Source: Candidatus Yanofskybacteria bacterium
GTDB taxonomy: Bacteria; Patescibacteriota; Minisyncoccia; 2-02-FULL-40-12; GWA2-44-9
NCBI GenBank assembly: GCA_903830625.1
Contig: CAIKUK010000015.1
Span: 37 to 64,036 of the forward strand
Direction of reading: 5' to 3'
Length of the DNA stretch: 64,000 nt
The translations under genes were made by a program, and so were the position numbers. How positions within the stretch are numbered: the first letter of the stretch is position 1; each line of letters opens with the position of its first letter. The notes beneath the pieces are model-generated. The model was not told the origin of the DNA. It saw only the letters and a program-made list of their open reading frames with translations, and did not search any database. Positions 1-46,526 of the stretch are shown piece by piece.

Positions 1-599
1 TGACGACCGGCCCAGACCTCATTGGAACCTTTGCCAGCCAGTTCTCCGGGTAGACCGTCCGGATGAATGGTGATAATAAATTTGAAAAAGGCTTGGCCGA
101 ATTCCGCTTCCGCTTGGAGAGCCAGCTCGGCGCCATGAGCGCCCGCCCGCTCTTCGGTCGCCAAAACCACAATCATTTTATCTTTCGGATAATTGGTTCT
201 GGAAATTGCGTTCAAACTATCCCGAACAATAGAATAAGGTTCTTTAAAGACCGGCAAGATAACCAGATTATAGACGTCTTGGTGGGCCACAGACGGCAAT
301 TGCGGATTTTCTGCAACTGATGCCAATCGATTAACCCAGTCCACTTTTAAATTTTGGCGCATCTTCATGAATGAAGACCGGATTAACACCGAAAGATAAA
401 CAGTTTTAATGAGCCAGTAGAGGTCAAAAAGGATAATGAAAAAAGTAGCAAAGACAGGTGCTTTAAAAGAGATCAGCACCACTAGAGCTAGGGTGACCCA
501 GGCCAAAAGACCCGGAAAAATTTCCAAAAATCGGTACAACCGGCGATCGCGCGGATTCGACAGGTCAGGAGCATTGCCAACATGAAGATAATCAAGCAT
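1..599 (-). CDS. Glycosyltransferase family 2-like membrane protein. The start codon is near 599 and the 3' end runs off the window start.
   Basis: Open minus-strand frame from the ATG at ~599 to the window edge. Translation MLDYLHVGNAPDLS...LVILPVFKEPYSIVRDSLNAI...KDKMIVVLATEERAG...GLPGELAGKGSNEVWAGR has an N-terminal TM segment followed by a GT2-like P-x-F-K-E-P / GKGSN pattern. It is absent from the ORF track because no stop lies within the window. Confidence 0.4.
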   Translation of the reverse strand, partial: MLDYLHVGNAPDLSNPRDRRLYRFLEIFPGLLAWVTLALVVLISFKAPVFATFFIILFDLYWLIKTVYLSVLIRSSFMKMRQNLKVDWVNRLASVAENPQLPSVAHQDVYNLVILPVFKEPYSIVRDSLNAISRTNYPKDKMIVVLATEERAGAHGAELALQAEAEFGQAFFKFIITIHPDGLPGELAGKGSNEVWAGR

Positions 600-645
600 A
601 GAGGCGTAATTAAAACACAAATATCAGCTTAATGCAACTCTTTAA

Positions 646-1596
646 CTAACCCAAGGCAAGACTGAAGAGGCCATCTTCCAGGTCGCGTTTGCCTTGCTTT
701 GTCCCCTGTTCGAGATCAATAACTTCCTGATAGAGATGCTTGATGTTCGCCAAGGAAAGATGAGCCGTGGCCGAAAGCATTTTCTTAACGACAAACGGAT
801 GAATGCCGGCTTTCTGGGCAATTTGAGACGAAGAAATGTTTCGGTCGGCAAAATCTTTGACCATGAGCATATTTCGGAACTGATAAATCACCATCGAAAG
901 CAAATAATACGGGTCTCGGCCATAGGCCAGCTCCCCGCAAAGCAGTGAGAACGCTTGGGCCCGACGGCCCGAACCTAGAGCGTCAATAAATTCAAAAACG
1001 TTCGGCTCGGTCTCGGTTTTAATAAGCTCGTCAACGCTGGCTAGCGTGATAACGCCCTGGGCATAATTAGCCAGCTTGTCGAGATTGTGAACCCGAGCCC
1101 AACTATCTGTCCCGGCCACAGTGACAAATCTGACTAACGCTCCCGGCGCAAATGATGCCCCCCGAGCCGAAGTTTCTTTTTTGAGCCATGTCTGTAGTTG
1201 TGTGCCTTCCAGATAAGTAAAATTACGAACTAGATTTTTAGAATCCGAGAGAAAAGTGAATAATTCTTTGGGTTTAGCTTGAGCATTAGTTCCGGAATGA
1301 GTAGCTAGAACAACAATCCCCTTGTCGGTTGCGATCTGATACTTCGTGAAAAGTTCGTGCAAAATTTCCGCCGTCTGTAAATTACTGAATATATTATTAA
1401 CCAGAATCAATTTAACCTCGCTAAAAAGCGAAATACTTTTGACCGCTTCGGTTACTTCGGCCACAGCCGAAGGGGCAGTGCCGTCAAGGCGAAACAAATT
1501 AAAACCGCTGCCATGTTTGGCTTGGTAGCTGCGGATTATCGATTCACGGTTGTCGCGCAACCGATAAGTGTCCTCGCCCGAAAGAAAGATAATCAT
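646..1596 (-). CDS. holA: DNA polymerase III delta subunit
   Basis: 316 aa. N-terminal MIIFLSGEDTYRL and overall delta-subunit (HolA) architecture. Overlaps the upstream gene stop by 4 nt. Confidence 0.7.
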   Translation of the reverse strand: MIIFLSGEDTYRLRDNRESIIRSYQAKHGSGFNLFRLDGTAPSAVAEVTEAVKSISLFSEVKLILVNNIFSNLQTAEILHELFTKYQIATDKGIVVLATHSGTNAQAKPKELFTFLSDSKNLVRNFTYLEGTQLQTWLKKETSARGASFAPGALVRFVTVAGTDSWARVHNLDKLANYAQGVITLASVDELIKTETEPNVFEFIDALGSGRRAQAFSLLCGELAYGRDPYYLLSMVIYQFRNMLMVKDFADRNISSSQIAQKAGIHPFVVKKMLSATAHLSLANIKHLYQEVIDLEQGTKQGKRDLEDGLFSLALG

Positions 1597-2603
1597 TGCC
1601 AGGTGGGGTTAACTTCAATCCAAATTTGGCCCGGTGTGAATTTGATTTCATCGCCGGCAGCATTATAAAAATACAACTTGGAATCAAGCCGGGCTGGATC
1701 TTTCTTCCAAGTGCCGGTAATTTTAATACCGTCCTGATAGATTTCGGCGTTCCCCTTTCCGGTGGTGTTAACCACGATGTATTGATCGCCCTCATACAAA
1801 ACATGCGAAGTCGTATCCATTACCGCAATGATGCTCGCTGTTACTTGTTTGTTGGTATTCTTGTCTATTTCCGGCGCTCCGCCTCGGGAACGGGAATATA
1901 AATTAGTGTTCTGATTGTAAATCCACGAAACATTATAGGGAGCTGGGTAATTAAGAATTACCTTTGTGGCGATATTGGAAATGTTTTTGGTCGGTGTGTC
2001 ATCGGCGTGAGGATAGCCGTCGAAGTCTTTAGTTAAGCTGTAACCAAAAGTTTTTGCCTGTTGGAACAACAAATCAAGATTAGAGAATCCATTATGCGGC
2101 GGCTTGATACCCGACTTCCGGTAAAAAATCGTGCCGTCGAATTGAAGGGCATCAATATTGTCCATGATATGACTATTGAGTTGAGCGAGTGCGACATGTT
2201 CCCCGCCCCAATGGGCATAGATAGCATCGAACCCGACCGCTAATGGAATAAAATCTTCTCGGGCGGAACGGATGGAACCGATTTCTTTCGGTGTCTGACA
2301 TTGGAAGATGGCCATAAACCTGGTCACACCATTAGGCGTGACCGGCATTTCGATAACCAGGTCAGCCGCGCCAATACCCGACAAAGGGCGAGCTTCGGGG
2401 TCGGAGGCCATCATTGCCGCCATCGGCCGACGTTGGGCCGTTTCGCAATTCAAACCGGCGATGGAGCTTGGTCTTTTGGGTGTTCCGTCCGAATTAAAAC
2501 TAACCGTAAAACTGCGGCCCGAACCAAAAATCCAGAATAATAATCCGGATAACAAAACGATACCGCCAACAACAAAAATTTTTCTACGATAAGCGCGATA
2601 CAT
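1593..2603 (-). CDS. DUF3048 (YerB-like) membrane-anchored protein
   Basis: 336 aa. N-terminal TM anchor followed by LSGIGAADLVIEMPV..GVTRFMAIF, consistent with the DUF3048/YerB lipoprotein family. Confidence 0.45.
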   Translation of the reverse strand: MYRAYRRKIFVVGGIVLLSGLLFWIFGSGRSFTVSFNSDGTPKRPSSIAGLNCETAQRRPMAAMMASDPEARPLSGIGAADLVIEMPVTPNGVTRFMAIFQCQTPKEIGSIRSAREDFIPLAVGFDAIYAHWGGEHVALAQLNSHIMDNIDALQFDGTIFYRKSGIKPPHNGFSNLDLLFQQAKTFGYSLTKDFDGYPHADDTPTKNISNIATKVILNYPAPYNVSWIYNQNTNLYSRSRGGAPEIDKNTNKQVTASIIAVMDTTSHVLYEGDQYIVVNTTGKGNAEIYQDGIKITGTWKKDPARLDSKLYFYNAAGDEIKFTPGQIWIEVNPTWQ

Positions 2604-2613
2604 GACTATATTT

Positions 2614-3492
2614 TTATTTTAGCACTTGATGAACGGAACAAAAATGGGCCGACCGACCGGCCAGTATAATACATCTTATCACTCCCCCGTCCTTCCGACT
2701 GCATTTTTCTCCCGTCTTCTGATAGGCCTTATGGAGATTTTGAAAATCACCTTTTGTCCCCGAAGGTGTCCGGTAGTCATTCATACTTGAACCTTTATGT
2801 TTTATTGCCAGTTTCAAAATATCCCACATCGCTTTGTAAATGCTTTTTAAATCTTTATCGTCCAAATGTTCCACTCGTGATGTCGGATGCAAATTCGCCC
2901 GCCACAAAATCTCATCGGCATAAATATTTCCGATACCGGCTATGAAATGCGGGTCCATCAGAACCTGTTTGATTCTCCCCTTTTTCTTGATAAAAAGCTT
3001 TTTAAATTCTGGAGATGAGATTTCTAACGGTTCCGGCCCAAGCTCATGGATTTCTTTTAAATCATTGACTTTATCATCATCAACCAGAACAATTTTGCCA
3101 AAGCGCCGTAAGTCGGATAAGGCCAATTGATAACCATTGCTCAAACCCATCACCACGCGGATATACTGATTGTTCCGATCGTCATTCAACGGCCCCTTAA
3201 TCTGGCTCTGCCATTTGCCATCCACTAGTTTCCATTTGCCATATAACAAATGGCCAGACATCTTTTGGTGAATAAAGATGGTCTTTTTACCTTCGATATC
3301 CAAAACAATGTATTTGGCCCGGCGCCGAACGCTTAATATCTTTTTATTCTTTATCTCTTTTTTAAAATGAGCCAATCCTCCGGCTTGGCGCAAAGTCTTG
3401 GCCCAATCTACCCAAACATTACGAAAACGCAGATTGATTAGGTCTTTGCGTAATTCCCTGACGATTGTCTCGACTTCTGGTAATTCCGGCAT
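2614..3492 (-). CDS. mutM: Formamidopyrimidine-DNA glycosylase (Fpg/Nei family)
   Basis: N-terminus MPELPEVETIVREL, the hallmark catalytic P2/E3 start. The H2TH region and C-terminal Cys/His zinc-finger-like tail (GRSAHFCSVHQ) are present, but the finger is a variant. Confidence 0.75.
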   Translation of the reverse strand: MPELPEVETIVRELRKDLINLRFRNVWVDWAKTLRQAGGLAHFKKEIKNKKILSVRRRAKYIVLDIEGKKTIFIHQKMSGHLLYGKWKLVDGKWQSQIKGPLNDDRNNQYIRVVMGLSNGYQLALSDLRRFGKIVLVDDDKVNDLKEIHELGPEPLEISSPEFKKLFIKKKGRIKQVLMDPHFIAGIGNIYADEILWRANLHPTSRVEHLDDKDLKSIYKAMWDILKLAIKHKGSSMNDYRTPSGTKGDFQNLHKAYQKTGEKCSRKDGGVIRCIILAGRSAHFCSVHQVLK

Positions 3493-3547
3493 GGGATGAT
3501 TCTCAACGAAGCAAGCGGATGCGACGCTGAGTTGTTAGAATCTTGCC

Positions 3548-3584
3548 ACCCGCCTAAATTTTTAGAATAAAAACTTAGGCGGGT
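3548..3584. repeat. Palindromic hairpin repeat, family A, copy 1 (ACCCGCCTAAATTTTTAG-aata-AAAAACTTAGGCGGGT)
   Basis: 15-bp near-perfect inverted arms. Lies just downstream of the polA stop. The same element recurs at 17228, 28711 and 62120. Confidence 0.8.
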
Positions 3585-3611
3585 TTCGCGCTATTGTCGA
3601 CTAGACTATGC

Positions 3612-6260
3612 CTACTCGACAACGCTCATTTCGGCCCAATTGTCGCCGGATTTGGCGTCAACAACTATGGGAACACCGAAGTGATGAGCCGATTCCATTA
3701 TTTCTTTTATTTCTCTCGAAACATCCCCGACCATATCGTGCTTCACCTCAAAAAGCAATTCATCGTGGACCTGAAGAAGCATTCGAACCTTATCGCTATA
3801 TTTTTTATCGATAAGCTTCTGAACACCAATCATGGCCAGTTTAATCAGGTCGGCCGATGTACCTTGAATGGGCATATTGATGGCCATGCGTTCCGCCCCG
3901 GCGCGAAGCATGGGCATGGTGGAAAGGATTTCCGGAATCGGCCGACGGCGCCCAAAAAGCGTGGCCACATAACCGTCCTTCCGGGCTTGTTCTTTTACCT
4001 TTTCCAAATACTTCGCCAAGCCGGCAAATTCTTTGTTGTAGTTATCAATAAAAGCCCTGGCCTCATCCCGACTGACACCGGCCGCTCTCTGAAATCCCAA
4101 AAGACCCATGCCATAAAGAACGCCGAAATTCAAAACTTTGGCCTGTCGGCGCATGTTCGGCGTGACTTTATCCGGCACCACGTGAAATACGCCTGCCGCC
4201 GTCCGGGTGTGAATATCCTCGCCCTTTTTGAACGCGCCAGACATGGCCGGATCGCCCGAAAGATGGGCGGCCATGCGCAAATCAAGCTGGGAATAGTCGC
4301 AGGATAGTAAAACAAAATCTTTTTCGGCGATAAAGGCCTTGCGGAATTCTTGGCCGACTTCGGTCCGAATGGGAATGTTCTGTAAATTCGGGTCCTGGCT
4401 CGATAATCGACCCGTGGTCGTGCCGGTCTGGTTATAAGTAGTATGGACTCGGCCACCAGAATCAATCAACGACGGAAATGGCTCAATATAGGTTGTTTTT
4501 AGTTTCTGGAGTTCCCGGTATTTTAAAATTAAGTCAACAATGGGATGTTCGTGAGCCAGTTTTTCCAGTTCGCTATGCGCCGTCGAAAGGGCACCTTTAC
4601 CGGTCTTGCGAACCTTGCTCTTTAAATCCAATTTATCAAACAAAACTACCGATAACTGCTTGGGTGAATTGATATTAAATTCGCCGCCCGCCATTTCGGC
4701 AATCTTTTTTTCAAGGCTATCGATTTCTTTAGTGATTATAGCATCTAGTTTGCGCAATCCTTGGACATCCACCTTGATTCCTGCCCGTTCCATTCGAGCC
4801 AGGATGGGACTTAATGGCAATTCAATAGTGTTCAAAACTTTTTTCAATTCAAATTCTTCCAACTTCGGCTCATAACGTTCTTTAAGCATGGCAATATAGG
4901 CCGGCCGTTTTAAAGGTTCCGGATCCATATCTTCGCTGAACTCCGCAAAGTATAATCTTTCCAGAAGAAAATCTTTAACCTCCGAATTTAGAACGTAAGC
5001 CGCCAGTTTGGTATCAAACGTGAATCCGGCTGGCGCTATCCCTCGCTCCAACGCCCAGCGGGTAATCATCTTAATATCGTGGCCAGTCTTTTTAATTCTG
5101 GAATCAGCCAAAATCTTCCCGAACCGAGCCGAAAGGTTACCATTTTTTAACATTGTCTCCGGGAATCCGAATGACTCGTGTCTGTTTAAGCCCAGCATAA
5201 CCACGCCATCGTGAACATCGATTACAAACTCGCCGGCGGAATCAATCTGGCCCAATATTTTTTCCAATTCTGCCACCGAACCAACGAGAGTGGTTTTAAT
5301 GCCGTCCTTTGAAGTTTTCGGCACATTGGGGGCATCAAATAAACTGGCCGGTTCAGAGGCACTGCCGTCAATCTCGCCCAGACGCTTTATAATACTGTAC
5401 AGGGCCAAATCTTTGAGCAGTTTCTCCAAGGCTGGTTTATCCAAATGTTCCCGCCACTCGGTCTGACCCAAATCAAAATCAATATCGACATCTCGGATAA
5501 TGGTCGACAAATACTTGGAAAAAATTGCTTGGTCTTTGTTGGTTGTTAATCGTTCCACTAGCTTGGGTGTCAGAAGTTTGGGTTGTTTGCCTTTTTTATC
5601 CAGCGCTTCGTAAAGTTTTTCAAGACTGCCAAAATGCTGAATTAAAGCCGAAGCGGTCTTGTCCCCTATCCCTGGCACGCCCGGAATATTGTCGGACGGA
5701 TCGCCTTTCAATCCCTTGTAATCAATGAGCTGATTCGGATTCAAACCATAGCGAGCCACGACTTCTTTTTCGTTATATATCACGGTATCGGTTATGCCTT
5801 TCCGCATCGTAAATACAACCACTTTGTCTTTTTCTACCAGTTGTAAGGTATCCAAATCTCCGGTCATGATAATAACTTGCAAGTCATCAGTGGTCTTGGC
5901 TTGTTCCGCCAGAGCGCCAATCAGGTCGTCGGCTTCAAAACCAGGCTTTTCAAAAATCGGAATGCCGAACTTGGTCAAAATTTCTTTAATATAAGGAATT
6001 TGGAGATAAAGTTCGTCCGGCGCTTTGACGCGATGACTCTTGTATTCGGCGAATTCTTCATGCCGGAAAGTCGCCCCAGGCAAATCGAAAGTGGCGGCGA
6101 TATAATCGGGCTTCAAGTCCTTAATCATTCTAATCATGACCGACATAAAACCAAAGATGGCATTCGTCGGAACGCCGGTGGCAGTATTGAGCGTCGGCGG
6201 CAGGGCATGAAAGGCCCGATGAACCAGCGCGTTGGAATCAATGAGAACAAGTTTTTTCAT
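3612..6260 (-). CDS. polA: DNA polymerase I with 5'-3' exonuclease domain
   Basis: The ORF track runs 3612..6362. The probable true start is the internal MKKLVLIDSNALVHRAFHALPP (5'-nuclease N-terminus) at ~6260, which overlaps the tsaE stop in an ATGA arrangement. Pol I family A motifs are present through the C-terminus. Confidence 0.85.
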   Translation of the reverse strand: MKKLVLIDSNALVHRAFHALPPTLNTATGVPTNAIFGFMSVMIRMIKDLKPDYIAATFDLPGATFRHEEFAEYKSHRVKAPDELYLQIPYIKEILTKFGIPIFEKPGFEADDLIGALAEQAKTTDDLQVIIMTGDLDTLQLVEKDKVVVFTMRKGITDTVIYNEKEVVARYGLNPNQLIDYKGLKGDPSDNIPGVPGIGDKTASALIQHFGSLEKLYEALDKKGKQPKLLTPKLVERLTTNKDQAIFSKYLSTIIRDVDIDFDLGQTEWREHLDKPALEKLLKDLALYSIIKRLGEIDGSASEPASLFDAPNVPKTSKDGIKTTLVGSVAELEKILGQIDSAGEFVIDVHDGVVMLGLNRHESFGFPETMLKNGNLSARFGKILADSRIKKTGHDIKMITRWALERGIAPAGFTFDTKLAAYVLNSEVKDFLLERLYFAEFSEDMDPEPLKRPAYIAMLKERYEPKLEEFELKKVLNTIELPLSPILARMERAGIKVDVQGLRKLDAIITKEIDSLEKKIAEMAGGEFNINSPKQLSVVLFDKLDLKSKVRKTGKGALSTAHSELEKLAHEHPIVDLILKYRELQKLKTTYIEPFPSLIDSGGRVHTTYNQTGTTTGRLSSQDPNLQNIPIRTEVGQEFRKAFIAEKDFVLLSCDYSQLDLRMAAHLSGDPAMSGAFKKGEDIHTRTAAGVFHVVPDKVTPNMRRQAKVLNFGVLYGMGLLGFQRAAGVSRDEARAFIDNYNKEFAGLAKYLEKVKEQARKDGYVATLFGRRRPIPEILSTMPMLRAGAERMAINMPIQGTSADLIKLAMIGVQKLIDKKYSDKVRMLLQVHDELLFEVKHDMVGDVSREIKEIMESAHHFGVPIVVDAKSGDNWAEMSVVE

Positions 6261-18795: not shown

Positions 18796-19221
18796 ATGAA
18801 ATGGTATTTTGCCTCTCGAGTAAGACATCAAAACAAGATCATAGAGATTACAGAATTTCTCAAACATAAAGGGCAAGATGTTCTGTCTAACTGGGTCTAT
18901 GAAAGTGCTCTCAAGCCATACCACGAGAACATAGATAAAGTTCAAAAACTGGCAACCGAGGTAACCGCTTCTTTGTTGGCAACTGATATTTTTGTGCTCG
19001 TTAGCGACCCCGAGGGAACCGATATGTTTATTGAGCTCGGCGTTTGTTTGGCCAAGAGCACGACTTCTCCGCGAGATATTAAAATATACATAATCGGTGA
19101 GTATTCGAAGCGATCATTAATGCAACTACATCCATCAATTACGCATTTAAAAACACTGCGTGAAGTATTCGAAAGGGAAGGGATTGATTCCAGTGATTTT
19201 ATTATTCCTTCTTTAGATTGA
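18796..19221 (+). CDS. Nucleoside 2-deoxyribosyltransferase-like (Rossmann/SLOG-like) protein
   Basis: 141 aa. KWYFASRVRH N-terminus and DIFVLVSDPEGTDMFIELGVCLAK resemble the NDT-family conserved blocks. Assigned by motif memory only. Confidence 0.35.
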   Translation: MKWYFASRVRHQNKIIEITEFLKHKGQDVLSNWVYESALKPYHENIDKVQKLATEVTASLLATDIFVLVSDPEGTDMFIELGVCLAKSTTSPRDIKIYIIGEYSKRSLMQLHPSITHLKTLREVFEREGIDSSDFIIPSLD

Positions 19222-19254
19222 AAAAATTCCTCTTACGAGGAATTTTTTCTTTTG

Positions 19255-19338
19255 TGCCCAGGGCCGGACTCGAACCGGCAAGCCCTTGCGAGCGAGACAT
19301 TTTAAGTGTCTTGCGGTTACCAATTTCGCCACCTGGGC
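19255..19338 (-). tRNA. tRNA-Leu (anticodon TAA)
   Basis: Class II cloverleaf on the minus strand: acceptor GCCCAGG/CCTGGGC, anticodon loop CTTAAAA, long variable arm, T-loop TTCGAGT, discriminator A. Confidence 0.75.
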
Positions 19339-19349
19339 AATACCAACGG

Positions 19350-19422
19350 AGGCCACGGTGGGGATCGCACCCACAAATAGCGGTTTTGCAGACCGCCGCG
19401 TTTACTAATTCGCCACGTGGCC
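19350..19422 (-). tRNA. tRNA-Cys (anticodon GCA)
   Basis: 73 nt. Acceptor GGCCACG/CGTGGCC, anticodon loop CTGCAAA, T-loop TGCGATC (G at position 55 is unusual). Confidence 0.65.
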
Positions 19423-20157
19423 AATTTTTTTTAGAACTGTTTCGGTATTCTTATCAATCCTACTAGGACGTAAGCAGAAATAAGCCTTGAAAATATCAAA
19501 TTTTCTCTGCAAATACAAACCATGACTGTCTCCATACATAAAAGAAAATAGTCTTATTGTATCCCTTGTATTATACCGTAAACGATAAGCCCTATTCCCA
19601 TTATAAACTTTGCCTAGACTAACCCCTAGAGTTTTTTCTAATTTTTCTCTAAGGCCAGTTAGAAAATCTTCACTACCAGAAGTAAAAATTACCGAAAGTC
19701 TTTTTAGAATACTCCTTTGAATAAGCCCTTTGCCTCTTTCTAGATACACGCAACCATCCCCATCAAAGTACCCTCGAACAAAATGGGGGAGGACACTAGA
19801 AGGAATACTAGGGAATTTAACTGTCAAAGATTTATCTGGATACATCCCCAAACCAAGCAAGTCATCGTATAAAGCCCTATTACCGATTCTCAAGGAGTAA
19901 GCGGTCCTAGTTTTATAACTTCTGTTTTGATGTTTAAAATGCACAAGTCTTGGTTTTCTTTCTACCACTCTATGCTCTGACCTTAACAGCACCTTTATCT
20001 TTTCGACTGTAGATTTGTCAACGCTCGTGACATTAATATAACTACCTCTCTCGGACTTATACATGCTCCCGTCCGCAAATAAGTAACCCAAAATATAGGC
20101 CATTTCTGGTGTCCAACTCTGGAAAAACTTTTCATCGATTTTATATTTGATACCCAC
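19405..20157 (-). CDS. LAGLIDADG family homing endonuclease (two-motif, free-standing)
   Basis: Motifs LGYLFADGS and VRGYFDGDGCV. The N-terminus KYKIDEKFF resembles I-CreI-like starts. The last 6 codons overlap the 5' end of tRNA-Cys. The GTG start lies inside a 9-bp perfect palindrome. Confidence 0.7.
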   Translation of the reverse strand: MGIKYKIDEKFFQSWTPEMAYILGYLFADGSMYKSERGSYINVTSVDKSTVEKIKVLLRSEHRVVERKPRLVHFKHQNRSYKTRTAYSLRIGNRALYDDLLGLGMYPDKSLTVKFPSIPSSVLPHFVRGYFDGDGCVYLERGKGLIQRSILKRLSVIFTSGSEDFLTGLREKLEKTLGVSLGKVYNGNRAYRLRYNTRDTIRLFSFMYGDSHGLYLQRKFDIFKAYFCLRPSRIDKNTETVLKKIGHVAN

Positions 20158-20222
20158 TTATATAATTATAAGTGGTAAATAATGTTACTGCAAGATTTTA
20201 ATGTACAACGAGATTAAAACTC

Positions 20223-21752
20223 CTAGAGTGTCCGAGCAATACTTTCCTCCTGATAGATTTCTAAGGTGTCCCCGACCTGAATATCGATTGCCGTCTTCGG
20301 GTCAATAATATCAATCCGCATGCCCGTTTCCAAGCCTTCAGCTACTTCAGGCACATCTTGCTTAGCTTGCTGAACCTGGCCGACCTTGGCAATCATGATG
20401 CTTTTGCCGTCGCGCGTCACATCACAGAAAGCGCCACGGACCAATTTGCCCGACAAGACCCGACCACCAATAACTTGGGCTCGAGCGTCTTTTTTAAAGA
20501 GAGCGAGAATTTTGACCTTGCCCAATATTTCCCGGCGAATCTCGGCCACCAATAAAGCGGCCATCTGTTTGCGGATATATTCAATCAGTTCATAAATAAC
20601 ATCAAACGTGGCCAGATTAACATGATCTTTTTCGGCTAATTTGCGGGCGGAAGTTTCTACGGGCACTCGGAAACCGATCACCGAACCGCCACCAGCCGCT
20701 GCAGTGCGCACATCAGAATCGGAGATAGCTCCGATATCATAACTCAACACCGTATAAACGACTTCTTCGGATTTAATCTGCTTAAGCGCCATTTCAATAG
20801 CTTCCAGAGAACTGGAGACATCAGTTTTGATGACTAACTTTAAATATTTCTTGAGCGGATCCAGTTGGGTATGGCTGGTTCTAAGGAAACAGAAGAGGGG
20901 AGTGAGATTAACATTGGCCGCCATGATGTCTTGGGCTGAATCTTTGGTTAAAGCAGTCGTAAACTCACGGCCAATTTCCGGCGGATTCGTCCAGCCCGTG
21001 ATCAAGACCGGCTGAGAGGGTATCGCTGTTTCAAGCCGATTGCCCGTAAAATCTTCCATTGATTTCACTTTACCGATGGCGGTCCCGGCCACGATCCAAT
21101 CGCCGATAGACAAGACTCCTTTGTGAATCAAAGCTGTGGCCACATAACCTCGGTGCTTATCCAGATTGGATTCAATAATGATACCGGTCGCCGGCAAGGA
21201 ACGGTCATCTTTAAGGTCTTCCAATTCGGCTACCAAAAGCACCATGTCCAATAACTCACTGATGCCACGATTTTCTTTGGCGGAAATCTCCACCACCGGC
21301 ACAGTTCCGCCCCAATCTTCCACCAGAATCTCTTCGCCGGCCAAATCTTGTTTCACTTTTTGAACATTGGCCCCAGGTTTATCGGTTTTACTGATAGCCA
21401 CCACGACCGGAATTTTTTCTTCTTTAATAATATGGATGGCTTCCTGGGTTTGAGGCTTGACGCTTTCATCGGCCGCCACCACTAGAATCGCCACGTCGGC
21501 CACCTTGGTTCCGCGAGAACGGATGGCCGTGAAAGCTTCATGGCCCGGCGTATCCAAGAAAGTAATCATCTTGCCTTGAGCGACGGCTTGATAGGCGCCG
21601 ATATGCTGGGTAATACTTCCGGATTCTCCACCGGCTATATTGGCCTTGCGAATAACATCCAATAAACTAGTTTTGCCATGATCGACATGACCAAGCACGA
21701 CTACGATTGGTGGCCGGTTCTCGGAAGCTGATTTTATAGTCGTATTAGCCAT
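20223..21752 (-). CDS. infB: Translation initiation factor IF-2 (short form)
   Basis: 509 aa. G-domain [16 protein letters not shown] plus the IF-2 beta-barrel and C-terminal domains. It lacks the long N-terminal extension. Confidence 0.85.
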
Positions 21753-21858
21753 ATTGGTTCGGTAATTTTACCATTTAAAAACCGTTTAGTCAAAAGAAAT
21801 ATGGCTTTAATAAAGCCATATTTCTGCGAAGAAACAAGGTTTTATTGGCCGCTAAATC

Positions 21859-22167
21859 TTAGACATTTTTTCTTTCGTTGAATTGCCGTTCAATTTCGGT
21901 AGCCACGATAAAATCTCGGTCGGTGACTTTGCCGCCGATGTCAAATCTCTGGAGCTCGAACAAAACTTTGCTGTAAAAAATATGAATATCCGGGTGATGG
22001 TCCATGGATTCAAAGAAAGAAACCAGACCGCTCACGAACCCGAAAGAATCCAAAAAATCTTTGAACTCATATTGCTTGCTGATTTTATCATTGGCAAATT
22101 CCCAGCCCGGCAAGGCCTTAAGTTTCTCACGTATCTCCTCTTCGGTTAAGATAACGGGTTTATCCAT
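21859..22167 (-). CDS. Pterin-4-alpha-carbinolamine dehydratase
   Basis: 102 aa. E-x-H-H-P-x5-Y-x2-V pattern (MDHHPDIHIFYSKVLFEL). Confidence 0.6.
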   Translation of the reverse strand: MDKPVILTEEEIREKLKALPGWEFANDKISKQYEFKDFLDSFGFVSGLVSFFESMDHHPDIHIFYSKVLFELQRFDIGGKVTDRDFIVATEIERQFNERKNV

Positions 22168-22194
22168 ATGGTTAAGCTATGATAGATTATAGTC

Positions 22195-22986
22195 ATGCAA
22201 CCTGATAAAAATCAACCGATTGGCGTTTTTGACTCTGGCCTGGGCGGTTTAAGCATTCTCCGGGAACTTAGGGAGCTTCTTCCGCACGAAAACTTCATTT
22301 TCCTGGCCGATCAGGCTTATGTTCCTTACGGCGAGAAAACTCCGGCCGAACTGATTGACCGCTGCCTAAAAATCGGTGAATTCTTAAAAAACCAGGATAT
22401 TAAATTGATGGTGGTCGCCTGCAATACAGCTACGTGCTATGCCCTTCCCGCATTGCGCCAGAAATATGCCCTGCTTATAGTCGGCACGGTGCCGGCCATA
22501 AAACCGGCATCCGAGAAAACAAAAACGGGCGTTATTGGAATTATCTCCACCGAAGCGACTTCAAAAAGCAAAACATTGGCTGATTTGATAACAGCTCATG
22601 CCCGCGATAAACAAGTTATAAATATTGGCTGTCCTAATCTTGAAGACACAGTTGAAGCTGGGGGATTGGATTCTACCGATACCAATGCTCTGCTTGAAAA
22701 ATATCTTGAACCAATCAAACAATCTTCAGCCGACTGTTTGGTTTTAGGTTGTACTCATTATCCATTCTTAAAACCAGCTATTGTCCAAGTGATGGAACGA
22801 GAAATAGAAATAATAGACTCAGGCGAGGCCATCGCCAAGCGGGTAAAAACATTGTTGGCTAATAACGAAACCTCTGCATCCGAAGGCGCAGTCAAGTATT
22901 TCACCACCAGCGAACCGGACCAATTTAATAACATCGCTTCAAAGCTCCTTAAAGAAAAGATTAAGGCTAAAACTGTTCAAATTTAG
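22195..22986 (+). CDS. murI: Glutamate racemase
   Basis: IGVFDSGLGGLSIL ... VVACNTAT ... LGCTHYP, the hallmark MurI motifs. Confidence 0.85.
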   Translation: MQPDKNQPIGVFDSGLGGLSILRELRELLPHENFIFLADQAYVPYGEKTPAELIDRCLKIGEFLKNQDIKLMVVACNTATCYALPALRQKYALLIVGTVPAIKPASEKTKTGVIGIISTEATSKSKTLADLITAHARDKQVINIGCPNLEDTVEAGGLDSTDTNALLEKYLEPIKQSSADCLVLGCTHYPFLKPAIVQVMEREIEIIDSGEAIAKRVKTLLANNETSASEGAVKYFTTSEPDQFNNIASKLLKEKIKAKTVQI

Positions 22987-23001
22987 GTGCGACTAATAAT
23001 G

Positions 23002-23090
23002 CGGAGAAGGAGGGATTCGAACCCTCGAGGGGGTTTAAGCCCCCTACATCTTTAGCAAAGATGCTCGATAGACCACTCCGACACTTCTCC
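23002..23090 (-). tRNA. tRNA-Ser (anticodon GCT)
   Basis: 89 nt class II: acceptor GGAGAAG/CTTCTCC, anticodon loop TTGCTAA, long variable arm, T-loop TTCGAAT, discriminator G. Confidence 0.75.
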
Positions 23091-23110
23091 CAAAGTTTCA
23101 AAATTATAGC

Positions 23111-24112
23111 TTAATTGTAGTACTTCTTCAAATGTTTTGGATTATGCGAACCAATCATTTTAAAATATCTTTCGACATCTTGCTTACTATTTAATCTAAT
23201 GTGTATACCCGACACAGAAGGGGACATACCTAAATCTCTTAAAATACCAAGCACAGATTCTCTGAGAGGTGCAGAAGCACTGGCAAAATCAATCTTTTTA
23301 TAGGAATACCATTTATTATTTACTTTGTATTTGTTAGTGAATATACAACCATCAGTGTCTACGAGTCCTCGAATACATGCTCTTGAAAATTTAGTATTAC
23401 TTTTTATCCATGATGGTATATCAAATTGTTGCCATACTTTATTGCCAATAACTATCCCGAGGGAGTGCAGATACTTGACCAGGTTACTTCGAGAGATAAG
23501 TAATGTGTTTGTAGACGATTTTATTCTATGGGTAACGCTTGGCTCAACGCCAAATAGCTTCTTCATTAGTTTCTTAACAAAATAACTGTACTCGAGATCA
23601 TCAACATGATGTAATGTTATCGAAATTTGTCTCTCTGTTGTTCCTCCGTCACCCATTAAAACTCCAAAGAATTCTGATAACGCCACTGAAGGCTTGGGTT
23701 TTCGGAAGAGGAGTGGAATTAAAATAGCATTCAGATTAAATTTACCTTCTTTATTCCACCATTTTTGCCAACGCTTTTTTCTATATTCAGGATTAACGGG
23801 AAATTTACCGTATTTTCGCATCACTGTTGCCGCTCCTTTTTTCCCTCCTTCGTAGGTGTACCAGTATCTACCCTTTATTTCTATGTCTTTCGGAAGAGGG
23901 ATAGACGACTTTCTCGAGAGATATTGAGCGACGGCCAGGGGCATAGAACCTTTTTCTTTCTTCCAGTATTCGATGGTCTTTCGATCTACTCCGAATATTT
24001 TAATAAGATTTTGCGAACCAATGCCTAGTTTATTTTCTACGGAATTAATAAATGAGGTCTGTTTACCTTTTTTAAACACTATTCGTTTACTAGAATTAAA
24101 CCGCTCTATCAT
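23111..24112 (-). CDS. LAGLIDADG family homing endonuclease (two-motif) with N-terminal extension
   Basis: Motifs FFGVLMGDGG and IRGLVDTDGCI. 333 aa. The gene sits between two Ser-type tRNA genes. Confidence 0.65.
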   Translation of the reverse strand: MIERFNSSKRIVFKKGKQTSFINSVENKLGIGSQNLIKIFGVDRKTIEYWKKEKGSMPLAVAQYLSRKSSIPLPKDIEIKGRYWYTYEGGKKGAATVMRKYGKFPVNPEYRKKRWQKWWNKEGKFNLNAILIPLLFRKPKPSVALSEFFGVLMGDGGTTERQISITLHHVDDLEYSYFVKKLMKKLFGVEPSVTHRIKSSTNTLLISRSNLVKYLHSLGIVIGNKVWQQFDIPSWIKSNTKFSRACIRGLVDTDGCIFTNKYKVNNKWYSYKKIDFASASAPLRESVLGILRDLGMSPSVSGIHIRLNSKQDVERYFKMIGSHNPKHLKKYYN

Positions 24113-24188
24113 ACTCCCATTTTACCACAAAAAGTGGCTGGTATTATCCACATGGAAATGCTATAATACCTAATAAACCAAGAGTTTT

Positions 24189-24279
24189 GGAGGAGTGCGT
24201 GAGTGGATAAAAACGAGCAGTTTACTAAACTGCCAAGCTCGCAAGAGCTTCGTGGGTTCGAATCCCACCTCCTCCGCCA
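24189..24279 (+). tRNA. Class II Ser-like tRNA with apparent ACT anticodon (atypical)
   Basis: 91 nt including an encoded CCA. Acceptor GGAGGAG/CTCCTCC, 3-bp D-stem, anticodon stem GCAGT/ACTGC with loop TTACTAA, long variable arm, T-loop TTCGAAT, G73. It differs from the neighbouring tRNA-Ser(GCT) loop by G34 to A. Confidence 0.5.
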
Positions 24280-41960: not shown

Positions 41961-42036
41961 TGGTGGACCGTAGCGGGCTCGAACCGCTGACCTCTTCGAT
42001 GCCATCGAAGCGCTCTACCAGCTGAGCTAACGGCCC
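41961..42036 (-). tRNA. tRNA-Ala (anticodon GGC)
   Basis: 76 nt with CCA. G3:U70 identity pair, D-arm GCTCAGCTGGTAGAGC, anticodon loop ATGGCAT, T-loop TTCGAGC. Confidence 0.75.
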
Positions 42037-42038
42037 AT

Positions 42039-42704
42039 CTATTTACTCATCATTTTGCCCAATGTAAGTAAATCGTGAAATATGCTTGCTGAGAAGTAAT
42101 CTATCACACATACTCCCTTGTAGTCTAATTTTTTAGACGGTTTACCAATAGTTCTTGCATCAACTCTTGCTTTGTAAAATTGTTTTTTATCAATACCGGT
42201 TGTTCGAACCCAAAATTTATCTAGGGCTTTTATGTCCTGGTCGGCACGACATAAAACCGTAATCCTGAATTTTGCTTCATCGATAACATAACAGGATCGC
42301 AATAACTTTAGAAAAAGTTTGATGATTCCCGGATCTGAATTGCCCAGTCGCAAACTTCCTCTCATACTTTTTGTCCCTTCGCCCAGATACAGAGCCACCA
42401 AAACCAATTTGGCAGCTTCTTTATTATTATTTAACAGATTAATAAAATCTAAATTATCATTCTCTATATTATCAAAATATTTTTTTCTTTTGTTCTTTTG
42501 CACCAAGATGGACTGAATACGCGCTTTTATTAATTTTTTATTTACATTTCGGGATAATTTTTCTTTTTGTTTTTGGGACAATTCTAAGTTGCTCAACCAG
42601 TAGGAGAGCGTGCTTTTTGAAACTCTGGGGAGCAAAGACCCGATTTCTGAATATGTTTTCCCTTGTTTTCTCAAAACCACTGCTTTATTACGAAAATCAT
42701 GCAT
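42039..42704 (-). CDS. LAGLIDADG-like endonuclease with N-terminal HTH domain (single motif)
   Basis: LVLVALYLGEGTKS motif and N-terminal HTH-like LRKQGKTYSEIGSLL. The stop lies 2 nt from tRNA-Ala. Confidence 0.4.
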   Translation of the reverse strand: MHDFRNKAVVLRKQGKTYSEIGSLLPRVSKSTLSYWLSNLELSQKQKEKLSRNVNKKLIKARIQSILVQKNKRKKYFDNIENDNLDFINLLNNNKEAAKLVLVALYLGEGTKSMRGSLRLGNSDPGIIKLFLKLLRSCYVIDEAKFRITVLCRADQDIKALDKFWVRTTGIDKKQFYKARVDARTIGKPSKKLDYKGVCVIDYFSASIFHDLLTLGKMMSK

Positions 42705-42893
42705 ATCAGTATTGTACTATAGACCTTATCTATGTTCAACTGCATTAAGTTGATAATCCTTGAGATTAGATGGTATTTATGGCATGATAGAGGACAAGTT
42801 TAAAAATAACTTGCCCTCGTCGTTCAACGGATAGGACAGGAATTTCCTAAATTTCAAATCTAAGTTCGACTCTTAGCGGGGGCACAAACATTT

Positions 42894-44760: not shown

Positions 44761-44881
44761 AAGCTAGCAAAAACCTTAAAAATCTGATAAAATAGATAAT
44801 GAAAACGGGCTATGGTGTAGCAGTAGCACGCACCGTTCGGGTCGGTGTAGCTCCGATGCAATTTCGGATAGCCCGACATAT

Positions 44882-46452: not shown

Positions 46453-46526
46453 GGGCCCATAGTAAAACGGTATTACGCGGCATTCGCATTGCCGAGGTCC
46501 GAGTTCGATTCTCGGTGGGTCCACCA
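46453..46526 (+). tRNA. tRNA-Ala (anticodon CGC)
   Basis: 74 nt with CCA. G3:U70, anticodon loop TTCGCAT, T-loop TTCGATT. Confidence 0.7.

Follow-up and report, generated by a model that had tools for sequence, protein, structure and literature searches.

Several described systems resemble the genes reported here. The classical cycle of a homing endonuclease is one of invasion, decay and loss. In collaborative homing, reportedly described by Bonocora & Shub and by Zeng et al. in 2009, a free-standing homing-endonuclease gene (HEG) is paired with an ORF-less group I intron in a neighbouring gene. WhiA is a domesticated bacterial LAGLIDADG DNA-binding protein with a C-terminal HTH, which has lost the catalytic acidic residues. 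Integrases use tRNA 3′ ends as landing sites. SegB, from the lytic phage T4, belongs to the GIY-YIG enzymes and spreads in mixed infections. Its gene is a free-standing HEG located in a tRNA gene cluster and is inherited with the flanking tRNA region (PMC2330249). The retrotransposons Ty3 and TRE5-A land upstream (on the 5′ side) of tRNA genes (PMC5911963, PMC3159450).

The window, the whole 64,000-nt stretch analysed, is DNA of an ultra-small bacterium (CPR/Patescibacteria) and contains three free-standing ORFs of the LAGLIDADG type, each co-oriented with a partner tRNA gene and located on its 5′ side (Table 1). Our preferred reading, with a probability of roughly 0.55, is that in Patescibacteria such genes form free-standing homing-endonuclease cassettes of the LAGLIDADG type, tied to the 5′ flank of particular tRNA genes. 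No description of a conserved pairing of stand-alone LAGLIDADG genes with tRNA genes was found in the searchable literature.

Table 1. Genes and candidate signals in the window.
Feature	Positions	Strand	Remarks
Terminator-like hairpin	19220-19249		Follows tRNA-Leu(UAA), which comes second in the Cys-Leu tRNA pair
tRNA-Leu(UAA)	19254-19338	-	ARAGORN; confirmed by Rfam
tRNA-Cys(GCA)	19348-19422	-	ARAGORN; Rfam 59.7 bits; ORF1 partner
ORF1	19405-20157	-	250 aa, GTG start, double-motif LAGLIDADG, free-standing
Candidate -35 box of tRNA-Cys promoter	19452-19457	-	Within ORF1; TTGATA in conserved 'RIDK' codons
Putative ORF1 promoter	20165-20193	-	TTGCAG, 17 nt, TATAAT; read from sequence
tRNA-Ser(GCU)	23001-23090	-	ARAGORN and local scan; ORF2 partner
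Promoter-like site before tRNA-Ser(GCU)	23103-23131	-	TTGAAG, 17 nt, TATAAT; scan, 10/12 matches
ORF2	23111-24112	-	333 aa, N-terminal HTH-like region and double-motif LAGLIDADG core, free-standing
ORF2 -10-like hexamer	24119-24124	-	TAAAAT, ends 6 nt before ATG; leaderless layout
tRNA-Ser(ACU)	24189-24279	+	ARAGORN and local scan
tRNA-Ala(GGC)	41961-42036	-	ARAGORN; confirmed by Rfam; ORF3 partner
ORF3	42039-42704	-	221 aa, N-terminal HTH and single LAGLIDADG-like domain
ORF3 promoter-like site	42711-42739	-	TTGAAC, 17 nt, TACAAT, 6 nt before ATG; scan; leaderless layout
tRNA-Arg(CCU)	42813-42885	+	ARAGORN; usual neighbour on ORF3 5′ side
tRNA-Pro(CGG)	44806-44877		
ORF4	44882-45772	+	Cys-rich, 'homing endonuclease associated repeat'; Pfam HNH_repeat PF18780 E=1.9e-12

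Linkage to tRNA genes across the phylum

The comparison set consisted of the window and 173 related loci, picked as best hits, with 169 distinct family ORFs. A co-oriented tRNA gene lies at -78 to +56 nt in 157 of the 169; contig ends account for six further ORFs, and no more than four intact genes depart from the pattern. An intact ORF3 homologue in L132 is unlinked to any tRNA. The comparison established this architecture and its spread throughout the phylum, as well as a tRNA specificity that runs family by family. The ORF1 family has tRNA-Cys directly 3′ of 55 distinct genes and tRNA-Asp as the partner of 22. Eight members of the ORF2 family are paired with tRNA-Ser(GCU), and more distant ORF2-like genes with tRNA-Ser(CGA) (3) or tRNA-Ser(UGA) (1). 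The sole partner of the ORF3 family is tRNA-Ala(GGC), with 60 distinct genes. Such a gene is almost never found 5′ of the bystander tRNAs of the same loci (Gly, Phe, Lys, Leu(UAG), Val and others). Of all adjacencies, that between the gene and the tRNA is the most stable. On the upstream side the neighbour differs between loci: it is infB in 27 of them and comFC or tRNA-Arg(CCU), the latter in either orientation, in others. The ORF1-type genes of Microgenomates keep tRNA-Cys as partner with a different geometry, being placed 3′ of it or divergently. Viral contigs are rich in free-standing distant relatives, of which 79/80 have no tRNA link and 1/80 has one; the link therefore characterises the lineages studied here, not the fold. 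The pairing is much stronger than the preliminary description could show: it extends throughout the phylum, depends on tRNA identity and involves ORF ends encoded by the tRNA or its promoter.

Tight spacing is common in this gene-dense genome, and an ordinary gene, that of NAD kinase, abuts tRNA-Ala(CGC) with a 0-nt gap, as an adjacency arising by chance would allow. However, only four of about 57 gene ends in the window lie ≤20 nt from the 5′ end of a co-oriented tRNA; three of these four belong to LAGLIDADG genes, which number three in the whole window (hypergeometric estimate, P about 1.4e-4). Together with the 157/169 homologues that abut the same kind of tRNA and the viral relatives that do not, this refutes chance adjacency, the probability of which is negligible.

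The preliminary description had reported three LAGLIDADG ORFs abutting tRNAs, and the ORF and tRNA calls agree with it; the 18 nt that it found shared between the end of ORF1 and the 5′ end of tRNA-Cys are read directly in the sequence. Its view of the genes as stand-alone is borne out by intact tRNAs, promoter-like sites of their own and the lack of a surrounding intron or intein. The HMM search that it proposed gave matches to Pfam LAGLIDADG_3 for ORF1 (E=7e-14) and ORF2 (E=9e-10), and the specific, non-random tRNA link that it suggested holds for the orthologous families.

Architecture of the cassettes

The catalytic acidic residues are retained in these families. The profile of alignment A1 matches I-Tsp061I (2dch) at 3e-7 and also I-DmoI, and D29 and D134 of ORF1 are invariant in it. 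An assignment of ORF1 to WhiA was rejected, the NCBIfam WhiA model giving 13.2 bits, far below the cut-off of 44.1. The GTG start of ORF1 is favoured because the N-terminal extension MGIKY... is conserved in homologues. Nucleotides 1-18 of tRNA-Cys are the last six codons of ORF1, GGC CAC GTG GCG AAT TAG, stop included. An overlap of 18 nt is also the commonest among the tRNA-Cys-linked genes (22 cases), and conserved ORF C-termini, e.g. GHVVK before the stop, are encoded by the tRNA itself. The order HEG, tRNA-Cys, tRNA-Leu(UAA) was found again in most of the loci L001-L047.

ORF1 probably has its own promoter, although the consensus scan made no call there. Its TATAAT ends 7 nt before the GTG, implying a leaderless mRNA; the layout TTGCAG...TTACCACTTATAAT is kept in loci homologous to that of ORF1, and a -10-like hexamer ends 4-10 nt before the start in 30/43 family members. 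The promoter of tRNA-Cys may tentatively be placed inside ORF1, where the scan again made no call: the TTGATA occupies -35 to -30 relative to tRNA-Cys +1, and many loci have TTGATA or TTGAAC with a TANNNT hexamer about 17 nt further on.

In ORF2, D155 (GDGG) and D254 (DTDG) are invariant in alignment A2, and some homologues match HTH_3 or HTH_23. The stop codon lies 20 nt from tRNA-Ser(GCU) in the window and 7-18 nt from it in 10/10 fetched ORF2-family loci. A -10-like hexamer is located 4-10 nt (mostly 6) before the ATG in 9/10 ORF2-family genes, compared with 13/54 ordinary genes of the window. The promoter-like site of tRNA-Ser(GCU) spans the last codons of ORF2 (KHLKKYYN and stop) and the spacer, ending 12 nt before the tRNA. 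This promoter-like layout is shared by the alleles L171 and L172, which lack the HEG, and comparison of the comFC-to-tRNA context places the cassette just 5′ of the -35 box of tRNA-Ser(GCU). The two tRNA-Ser genes of the window scored 53.8 and 49.6 bits in the local scan (gathering score 29).

The LAGLIDADG-like domain of ORF3 comprises residues ~95-221, with an invariant E109 in LYLGEGSK; the best match of the ORF3 model is I-DmoI. The stop codon of ORF3 is 2 nt from tRNA-Ala(GGC), and the gaps in the 60 distinct genes range from -68 to +42, with peaks at -10, -15 and 0 to +2. The arrangement TTGAAC/TTGCAC...TATGGTACAAT, 6 nt, ATG is kept in 56/61 distinct family members. In relatives, tRNA-Arg(CCU) is found on either strand, as a rule some 57-150 nt away from the start of ORF3; therefore, rearrangements reach the 5′ border of the ORF3 cassette, and the tRNA-Ala junction is kept. 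Conserved promoters with a leaderless layout are thus found in all three families, and the 3′ end of the ORF enters the tRNA promoter (ORF2) or the tRNA itself (ORF1 and many ORF3 relatives).

According to the preliminary description, the adjacent tRNAs might be products of intron gain or loss or of duplication; the ORFs would then be relics, formerly intron-encoded, or generators of neighbouring tRNA copies. Patescibacteria are rich in tRNA introns (PMC13011429), and in five loci (L053, L061, L066, L071 and L076) the tRNA-Asp directly 3′ of an ORF1-type gene is split at 35/36 by a group I intron; ORF2 lies between two tRNA-Ser genes in both the window and L161. However, the introns in tRNA-Asp measure about 200 nt and lack an ORF, and they belong to the partner of a sister subfamily; no intron-containing forms of tRNA-Cys, tRNA-Ser or tRNA-Ala were seen in relatives. 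The window's partner tRNAs are all intact, with no intron detected, the ORFs lie outside them with their own promoters, and no tRNA fragment was seen 5′ of ORF1 in the window sequence. As for duplication, many positions distinguish tRNA-Ser(ACU) from tRNA-Ser(GCU), and the former, divergent from ORF2 and 76 nt from its start, is kept both in L161, where ORF2 is present, and in L171, where it is absent. Judged from these loci, tRNA-Ser(ACU) is a neighbour and not a product of the ORF2 cassette. An origin as relics is largely refuted for the window and highly improbable.

Other nuclease-type genes also occur beside tRNAs. ORF4 starts 5 nt 3′ of tRNA-Pro(CGG), and a homologue with 47% identity lies 69 nt 3′ of tRNA-Pro(CGG) in L086 and L087; ORF4 may be a fourth tRNA-adjacent element of the nuclease type, with a geometry other than that of ORF1-3. 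The position 5′ of tRNA-His and tRNA-Ser(UGA) is taken by unrelated HNH nuclease ORFs.

Inheritance and mobility

Pairwise identities of the HEGs and of IF-2 correlate (r=0.60, Mantel p≤5e-4), with means of 0.47 and 0.44, respectively, so the two are equally conserved; for ORF3 and the CCA-adding enzyme r=0.92. Judged by these identities, inheritance is mostly vertical, which the preliminary description had not anticipated; a degree of lateral replacement and some empty sites accompany it. L014 and L018 share about 50% nucleotide identity in infB. The value rises to 80-93% some 40 nt ahead of the HEG start, stays there across tRNA-Cys and is lower again beyond; outliers in the comparison of HEG with IF-2 reach z=5.7, 5.0 and 4.0. 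ORF1 is kept in 3/3 close relatives seen. L161 (IF-2 77%) has ORF2; in the close relatives L171 (IF-2 82%) and L172, both with ORF1, tRNA-Ser(GCU) stands without it. HEG-less tRNA-Asp occurs in L062, L064 and L072. The sharp identity steps at cassette borders, the ORF2-less tRNA-Ser(GCU) sites and the HNH genes in the same position lend some support to mobility.

Comparison of HEG-bearing and HEG-less tRNA-Ser(GCU) alleles revealed no consistent sequence difference, and the tRNA promoter is present in both; self-immunity would then be explicable only if the recognition site spans the right border of the cassette. No conservation 5′ of the insertion point was found between the HEG-less alleles. 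About 3/169 copies appear disrupted (L039, L157 and perhaps L080) among loci picked as best hits, fewer than the classical invasion, decay and loss cycle predicts.

Such persistence could also mean that the proteins are domesticated host factors for the neighbouring tRNA gene, kept vertically because they are useful. They might be regulators of tRNA transcription that bind specific DNA sequences, repair or gene-conversion factors for single-copy tRNA genes, or maturase-like RNA chaperones. Conservation at the level of IF-2, co-divergence with flanking housekeeping genes, the scarcity of disrupted copies, promoters conserved phylum-wide, the retention of ORF1 in all close relatives and the N-terminal HTH modules of ORF2 and ORF3 agree with this, and the L132 copy, intact but unlinked, points to an action in trans. 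Yet the catalytic acidic residues are invariant, unlike those of WhiA-type domesticated proteins. The proteins are dispensable, since some close relatives lack ORF2 and yet have a promoter-like site for tRNA-Ser(GCU) itself, and tRNA-Asp also occurs without a HEG. Lateral replacement, unrelated HNH nucleases in the same position and partners of only a few tRNA identities, which are hard to square with a general tRNA function, make domestication rather unlikely.

Alternatively, the tRNA 5′ flank may be a mere safe harbour, one of few sites in a very compact genome where a selfish gene of roughly 1 kb is tolerated and transcribed, its nuclease cutting elsewhere or no longer cutting anything, the tRNA specificity reflecting ancient single insertions and vertical descent. 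Mostly vertical descent and the similarity of the alleles fit this, as do the minimal intergenic space of the genome and the role of tRNA flanks as classical landing sites, e.g. for retrotransposons upstream of tRNA genes (PMC3159450, PMC5911963). This explanation is improbable: Microgenomates keep the partner tRNA despite the changed geometry, HEG and tRNA appear to move as a unit (L014/L018), three distantly related LAGLIDADG families and HNH genes converge on one side in one orientation, viral relatives have no tRNA preference, and the 5′ flanks of many other tRNAs at these loci are unoccupied.

Proposed mechanism

In the preferred reading as homing cassettes, each cassette would be self-contained, with its own promoter giving a leaderless mRNA and an intact nuclease ORF. 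The enzyme would cleave alleles of its own tRNA locus that lack the HEG, where the promoter meets the tRNA 5′ end or close by. Double-strand-break repair would then insert a copy of the cassette, a process like the 'intronless homing' known for phage Seg/Mob enzymes. The cassette would split or displace the site, making the cassette-bearing allele immune. Exchange of DNA among relatives may provide empty sites so frequently that selection maintains the nuclease. Clean deletion of a cassette would be hard because the 3′ end of the ORF also serves as promoter or 5′ end of the tRNA, which would help account for the unusual longevity of the cassettes. The mostly vertical descent, few disrupted copies and lack of an allele difference count against homing, as do the unlinked ORF3 homologue in L132 and the unconserved sequence 5′ of the insertion point.

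Comparison with known systems

A text search of the study of CPR rRNA-insertion LAGLIDADG genes, which share the host phylum (Tsurumaki 2024, PMC11270868), found no mention of tRNA. The tRNA-linked genes resemble the CPR and archaeal rRNA-intron enzymes (I-DmoI, I-Tsp061I; PMC11270868) in enzyme family and in lodging in or at a highly conserved RNA gene. The rRNA-linked nuclease genes lie inside the rRNA gene, in an intron or insertion removed from the RNA, whereas the tRNA-linked ones lie outside and are unspliced. Unlike WhiA, the tRNA-linked families have invariant acidic residues and an N-terminal HTH.

As with integrases, Ty3 and TRE5-A, the tRNA flank serves as a conserved, tolerated insertion site, for Ty3 and TRE5-A also on the 5′ side. 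Those elements rely on an integrase, or on retrotransposition directed by Pol III factors; unlike the LAGLIDADG cassettes, they are not nuclease-only and share no coding sequence with the tRNA. The ORF1-type genes directly 5′ of intron-bearing tRNA-Asp show the layout that collaborative homing would require; unlike in that system, most partner tRNAs, including all three in the window, are intron-free. Like SegB and other free-standing Seg/Mob genes, the cassettes stand alone between genes, outside any intron or intein, are inherited with the flanking tRNA region and have their own expression signals. Unlike SegB, they encode LAGLIDADG enzymes on a bacterial chromosome, in a pairing conserved across a phylum and mostly of vertical descent, and the patescibacterial gene is always on the tRNA 5′ side, co-oriented with the tRNA and often overlapping it.

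LAGLIDADG and LAGLIDADG-like genes of the window

Eight tRNA genes were located in the window by ARAGORN, and the relevant ones are supported by Rfam. A default-filter Rfam scan of window positions 1–64000 lists five of the eight, missing both tRNA-Ser genes and tRNA-Pro; in a local Rfam scan the two tRNA-Ser genes lie far over threshold. The three ORFs beside tRNA genes (ORF1–ORF3) have the coordinates given in the preliminary description, and the sharing of 18 nt between ORF1 and tRNA-Cys is also confirmed; each ORF is co-oriented with its tRNA and adjoins the 5′ end (see table).

LAGLIDADG endonucleases are characterised by an α–β–β–α–β–β–α core fold and by site-specific double-strand cleavage at DNA sites of 14–40 bp. 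Of the three ORFs described as LAGLIDADG genes, only ORF1 and ORF2 exceed the Pfam LAGLIDADG_3 cut-off; ORF3, which has a single motif, could not be linked to LAGLIDADG proteins by Pfam, NCBIfam, hhalign or PDB-sequence searches. The motif helix with a conserved acidic residue at its end is present. It reads ...YLFADGS and ...YFDGDGC in ORF1, GDGG and DTDG in ORF2, and LYLGEGTK in ORF3; residues D29 and D134 of ORF1, D155 and D254 of ORF2 and E109 of ORF3 do not vary across 20, 25 and 23 sequences, respectively. The ORFs are not recent copies of one another: phmmer comparisons within the window detected no relation (E>0.5), which indicates three separate families.

All three genes are free-standing. 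They are situated between other genes and have promoter-like sites of their own; no intron or intein domains were found around them in the window, the Rfam Intron_gpI model has no match there, and the partner tRNAs of the window are uninterrupted, unlike those expected for intron-encoded endonucleases. A left-over tRNA 5′ fragment was looked for upstream of ORF1, and none was seen.

A tight gene–tRNA junction alone is not special in this genome, since the NAD kinase gene adjoins tRNA-Ala(CGC) without a gap. A further ORF of the window, ORF4, has a homologue (47% identity) 69 nt 3′ of tRNA-Pro(CGG) in two related loci, L086 and L087, and is possibly another tRNA-linked nuclease-type element, here placed 3′ of the tRNA. 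Apart from tRNA-Arg(ACG), bacterial tRNAs rarely have A34. An unmodified-looking A34 is found in tRNA-Ser(ACU), which is kept in three related genomes, where it accompanies the normal tRNA-Ser(GCU) and is redundant for AGY codons (Rfam 49.6 bits; cloverleaf fold z=−4.2).

Positions of the genes, tRNAs and introns discussed in the text; L numbers denote loci fetched from related genomes
Feature	Locus	Position	Strand	Remarks
ORF1	window	19405–20157	−	Pfam LAGLIDADG_3, two matched stretches, E=7e-14; final 18 nt are nt 1–18 of tRNA-Cys(GCA), same strand, ORF 5′ of tRNA
ORF2	window	23111–24112	−	Pfam LAGLIDADG_3, two matched stretches, E=9e-10; stop codon 20 nt 5′ of tRNA-Ser(GCU), same strand
ORF3	window	42039–42704	−	One LAGLIDADG-like motif, no Pfam LAGLIDADG match; stop codon 2 nt 5′ of tRNA-Ala(GGC), same strand
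tRNA-Ser(ACU)	window	24189–24279	+	
tRNA-Ser(ACU)	L161	2846–2935		
tRNA-Ser(ACU)	L171	6599–6686		
tRNA-Pro(CGG)	window	44806–44877		
ORF4	window	44882–45772	+	296 aa, Cys-rich; Pfam HNH_repeat (‘homing endonuclease associated repeat’), E=2e-12; start 5 nt 3′ of tRNA-Pro(CGG)
NAD kinase gene	window	45775–46452	+	0-nt gap to tRNA-Ala(CGC)
tRNA-Ala(CGC)	window	46453–46526		
Second, distant LAGLIDADG-profile ORF	L048	3678–4346		Between tRNA-Cys and tRNA-Leu(UAA)
Second, distant LAGLIDADG-profile ORF	L062	3696–4493		Between tRNA-Cys and tRNA-Leu(UAA)
HNH-motif ORF	L115	~210–700		
HNH-motif ORF	L144	~1075–1615		
HNH-motif ORF	L131	~3375–3850		
tRNA-Ala(GGC)	L132	1232–1307		No endonuclease gene in front
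ORF3 homologue, intact	L132	2501–3166		Followed directly by ychF, no tRNA
Intron-split tRNA-Asp	L053	~2015–2305		
Intron-split tRNA-Asp	L061	~880–1165		
Intron-split tRNA-Asp	L066	~3705–3975		
Intron-split tRNA-Asp	L071	3640–3910		
Intron-split tRNA-Asp	L076	~630–910		
Group II intron domains D1–D4	L058	6338–6427	−	Rfam, 45.8 bits; Daviesbacteria contig

Spread and partner specificity

The loci fetched from relatives comprise 80 of the ORF1 family from species-representative genomes, 80 of the ORF3 family from metagenome contigs and, via exact-protein look-ups, 10 of the ORF2 family and three of close relatives with ORF1; all are positive for a homing-endonuclease gene (HEG) by selection, so that counts drawn from them give no unbiased prevalence of tRNA alleles with (HEG+) and without (HEG−) such a gene. 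All ORFs of these loci were scanned with three family profiles, and all tRNAs were located. The window itself is Patescibacteria DNA, and named homologues of its proteins belong to the candidate phyla radiation (CPR) without exception; in the species-representative ORF1 set the named hosts are Parcubacteria-type groups, Microgenomates and Berkelbacteria.

The tRNA link seen in the window holds among relatives: of 169 distinct genes of the three families, 157 have their 3′ end no more than 78 nt inside or 56 nt short of a tRNA on the same strand. Six others lie at a contig end, two are front halves of split genes, and only four intact genes lack a tRNA 3′ of them. Three of these, from Microgenomates, are directly preceded by tRNA-Cys or diverge from it; the fourth, in L132, is the one clear unlinked case in the 80 ORF3-family loci, with tRNA-Ala(GGC) ~1.2 kb upstream. 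As a control, 80 viral contigs with distant ORF1 relatives (27–40% identity) were inspected, and 79 have no tRNA within 3 kb; the ORF3 family was searched for on viral contigs and none was found.

Each family has its preferred partner. The ORF1 family is associated with tRNA-Cys (55), tRNA-Asp (22, a more distant subfamily) and tRNA-Leu(UAA) (3; two are second, distant genes and one is an ORF1-type ORF reading through tRNA-Cys), the ORF2 family with tRNA-Ser(GCU) (8), Ser(CGA) (3) and Ser(UGA) (1), and the ORF3 family with tRNA-Ala(GGC) (60), Met (2), Arg(UCU), Arg(CCU) and Phe (one each). The tRNAs for Gly, Lys, Leu(UAG), Val and others in the same loci almost never have an HEG in front. L048 and L062 have a tandem HEG–tRNA–HEG–tRNA layout.

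ORF–tRNA junctions and promoters

The overlap with tRNA-Cys is exactly 18 nt in 22 of 55 cases, and the conserved C-terminus of the ORF1 family, G-H/R/A/P-V-V/A-K-stop, corresponds to in-frame reading of tRNA nt 1–18, the stop codon falling in the D-loop. ORF3 relatives commonly share 10 nt (19 cases) or 15 nt (seven cases) with tRNA-Ala, the tails ...GL-stop, ...GP-stop and ...GPVV-stop being encoded by GGGCC.GTAG.... In ORF2, the codons of the invariant C-terminal KHL(K/R)(K/R)Y contain the hexamer TTGAAG or TTGAGA, which makes up a promoter-like site with a TATAAT-like hexamer 17 nt on; no other strong site of this kind precedes tRNA-Ser(GCU), and the same promoter layout is present in HEG− alleles.

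The comFC-to-tRNA-Ser context is common to L172 (HEG−) and L166 (HEG+). The comFC stop codon of L172 is 6 nt from the −35 box, and the equivalent position in L166 is filled by the cassette. The comparison of occupied and empty flanks suggested earlier thus places the ORF2 cassette before the −35 box but yields no consistent difference in the tRNA: the tRNA-Ser(GCU) 5′ halves of L166 and L172 are nearly identical, and immunity by tRNA sequence change was rejected on the HEG+ and HEG− tRNA-Ser(GCU) alleles. Neither these alleles nor the L166/L172 pair offer an evident basis for self-immunity, and no cleavage target can be deduced from HEG+/HEG− allele comparisons. That the tRNA loci are purely a safe harbour for the genes seems unlikely.

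Each cassette appears self-sufficient: a promoter-like site is conserved in all three families; its −10 hexamer ends ~6 nt before the start codon, which implies leaderless HEG mRNAs. A −10-like hexamer 4–10 nt before the start occurs in 30/43 members of the ORF1 family, 9/10 of the ORF2 family and 56/61 of the ORF3 family, compared with 13/54 ordinary window genes. A Shine–Dalgarno-like motif precedes only 4/54 likely window genes; the scarcity of such motifs and the −10-like hexamer in about a quarter of the genes suggest that leaderless translation is widespread in this organism. Among the partner tRNAs, tRNA-Ser alone has a called site in front in the promoter scan. For promoters embedded before the tRNAs, the position-specific profile of 60 nt is too blurred by variable spacing for proof, and the counts of promoter-like sites show no clear excess over shuffled sequence. 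Promoter capture, in which an ORF inserted at tRNA +1 would have taken over the former tRNA promoter, is unsupported, since the promoters of HEG− tRNA-Ala, Asp, Cys and Ser are unlike the conserved HEG promoters.

Vertical descent and mobility

Descent has been mostly vertical, with occasional replacement, gain or loss. The order infB–HEG–tRNA-Cys–tRNA-Leu is found in 27 fetched loci as well as in the window, L171 and L172. Pairwise HEG identity tracks that of IF-2, the infB product (r=0.60, 29 taxa, Mantel p≤5e-4), and mean identities are 0.47 (HEG) and 0.44 (IF-2), making the HEGs as conserved as an essential translation factor; ORF3 follows the adjacent CCA-adding enzyme with r=0.92 (11 loci). 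Only about three copies look disrupted. This level of conservation would suit a host function equally well, and the proteins might have been domesticated, which we consider rather unlikely. In WhiA, the domesticated counter-example, the motifs are degenerate and without catalytic acidic residues, and the HTH is C-terminal, whereas the present proteins keep the acidic residues invariably and have an N-terminal HTH; the match to the WhiA model TIGR00647 (E=0.04) stays under the cut-off.

Against this mainly vertical background, a few pairs are outliers in the HEG-versus-IF-2 comparison (z=4–5.7). In L014 and L018, IF-2 identity is 54% and HEG identity 83% (z=5.7); nucleotide identity rises from ~50% to 80–93% at ~40 nt ahead of the HEG start, and the high level extends across tRNA-Cys before falling again. 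The pairs L028/L037 and L013/L014 behave similarly, and these few cases may reflect lateral transfer of the HEG with adjoining DNA. Presence and absence also alternate among relatives: the window and L161 (IF-2 77%, ORF2 60% identity) carry ORF2, and tRNA-Ser(GCU) stands without it in L172, L173, L004 and L171, the closest relative of the window (IF-2 82%, ORF1 79%). L171 nonetheless has tRNA-Ser(ACU) beside tRNA-Ser(GCU), and these two tRNA genes show many sequence differences; the earlier proposal of intron loss or duplication as the origin of the neighbouring tRNAs is therefore not supported. The Asp-type HEG is missing at tRNA-Asp in L062, L064 and L072. Among the sampled loci, chosen as HEG-positive, no empty ORF1/tRNA-Cys site was found, and the only empty tRNA-Ala(GGC) site is that of L132.

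Co-oriented ORFs of unrelated HNH nucleases likewise stand 5′ of tRNA-His and tRNA-Ser(UGA). Those of L115, L144 and L131 end 3–16 nt before tRNA-His(GUG) or tRNA-Ser(UGA), with the same geometry as the LAGLIDADG genes.

Introns of tRNA-Asp

Five loci of the Asp subfamily (L053, L061, L066, L071 and L076) only appeared to be tRNA-less: in each, a tRNA-Asp(GUC) split after anticodon position 35, missed by ARAGORN and by the Rfam gathering scan, lies directly 3′ of the ORF1-type LAGLIDADG gene. The introns are ~200 nt long and ORF-less in all five; that of L071 scores 59.8 bits with the Rfam group I intron model RF00028. They represent the 35/36 tRNA intron of Patescibacteria, which was described recently; in that study endonuclease genes were looked for only within the introns, and the introns were taken to be immobile as they lack internal HEGs (PMC13011429). 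A free-standing LAGLIDADG gene beside the split tRNA-Asp makes collaborative homing possible at this locus, judging from gene arrangement, and the adjoining HEGs may lead to a revision of that conclusion. Patescibacteria lack group II introns according to the same survey (PMC13011429); L058 contains a match to group II intron domains.

Instead of selfish passengers, an old, phylum-wide partnership can also be imagined, although we regard it as unlikely, in which each LAGLIDADG protein would act in trans for one single-copy tRNA gene, synthesis of the nuclease would be coupled to tRNA 5′ processing by way of the ORF/tRNA overlap, and the ORF-less group I introns of tRNA-Asp would be mobilised in trans by the adjoining free-standing enzyme. 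In cells that are polyploid or import DNA, the protein might use targeted gene conversion to preserve or homogenise the tRNA gene, or else it might gate tRNA transcription; RNase P cleavage would remove the ORF1-type stop codon, giving non-stop messages.

Nature of the cassettes and comparison with known systems

The genes combine this architecture and specificity for tRNA identity with phylum-wide breadth and retained catalytic residues. They are best read, with a probability of roughly 0.55, as free-standing homing-endonuclease cassettes for which the tRNA locus is the anchor and probable target. Such cassettes could persist because the target is universal and essential, because DNA exchange between relatives possibly supplies empty sites, and because the ORF 3′ end may now be part of the tRNA promoter or 5′ end.

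Genomes of about a megabase retain several nuclease genes of ~0.7–1 kb, each linked to a single tRNA gene, and provide a natural case in which to ask how a selfish gene could persist over the lifetime of a phylum; candidate causes are entanglement with the promoter or 5′ end of an essential gene, recurrent homing via DNA uptake and domestication. They also offer a large set of candidate rare-cutting enzymes with likely targets at tRNA loci. With 4,526 cluster representatives at E≤1e-3, the ORF3 type adds a family of >4,000 sequence clusters for whose nuclease-like domain Pfam offers no model.

Most known free-standing homing endonucleases come from phages and organelles and, to our knowledge, LAGLIDADG genes of CPR bacteria have hitherto been considered solely as cargo carried by rRNA insertions. 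Full-text literature searches found no LAGLIDADG genes at the tRNA 5′ flank in CPR, and a prior mention elsewhere is possible. Among the closest systems are the LAGLIDADG genes that reside in rRNA insertions of CPR bacteria and archaea (PMC11270868) and T4 SegB with other free-standing phage endonucleases, which share with the present genes the intronless, free-standing state (PMC2330249). Unlike known intronless HEGs, the present cassettes are chromosomal, specific for the tRNA 5′ flank, overlapping with the tRNA and conserved throughout the phylum.
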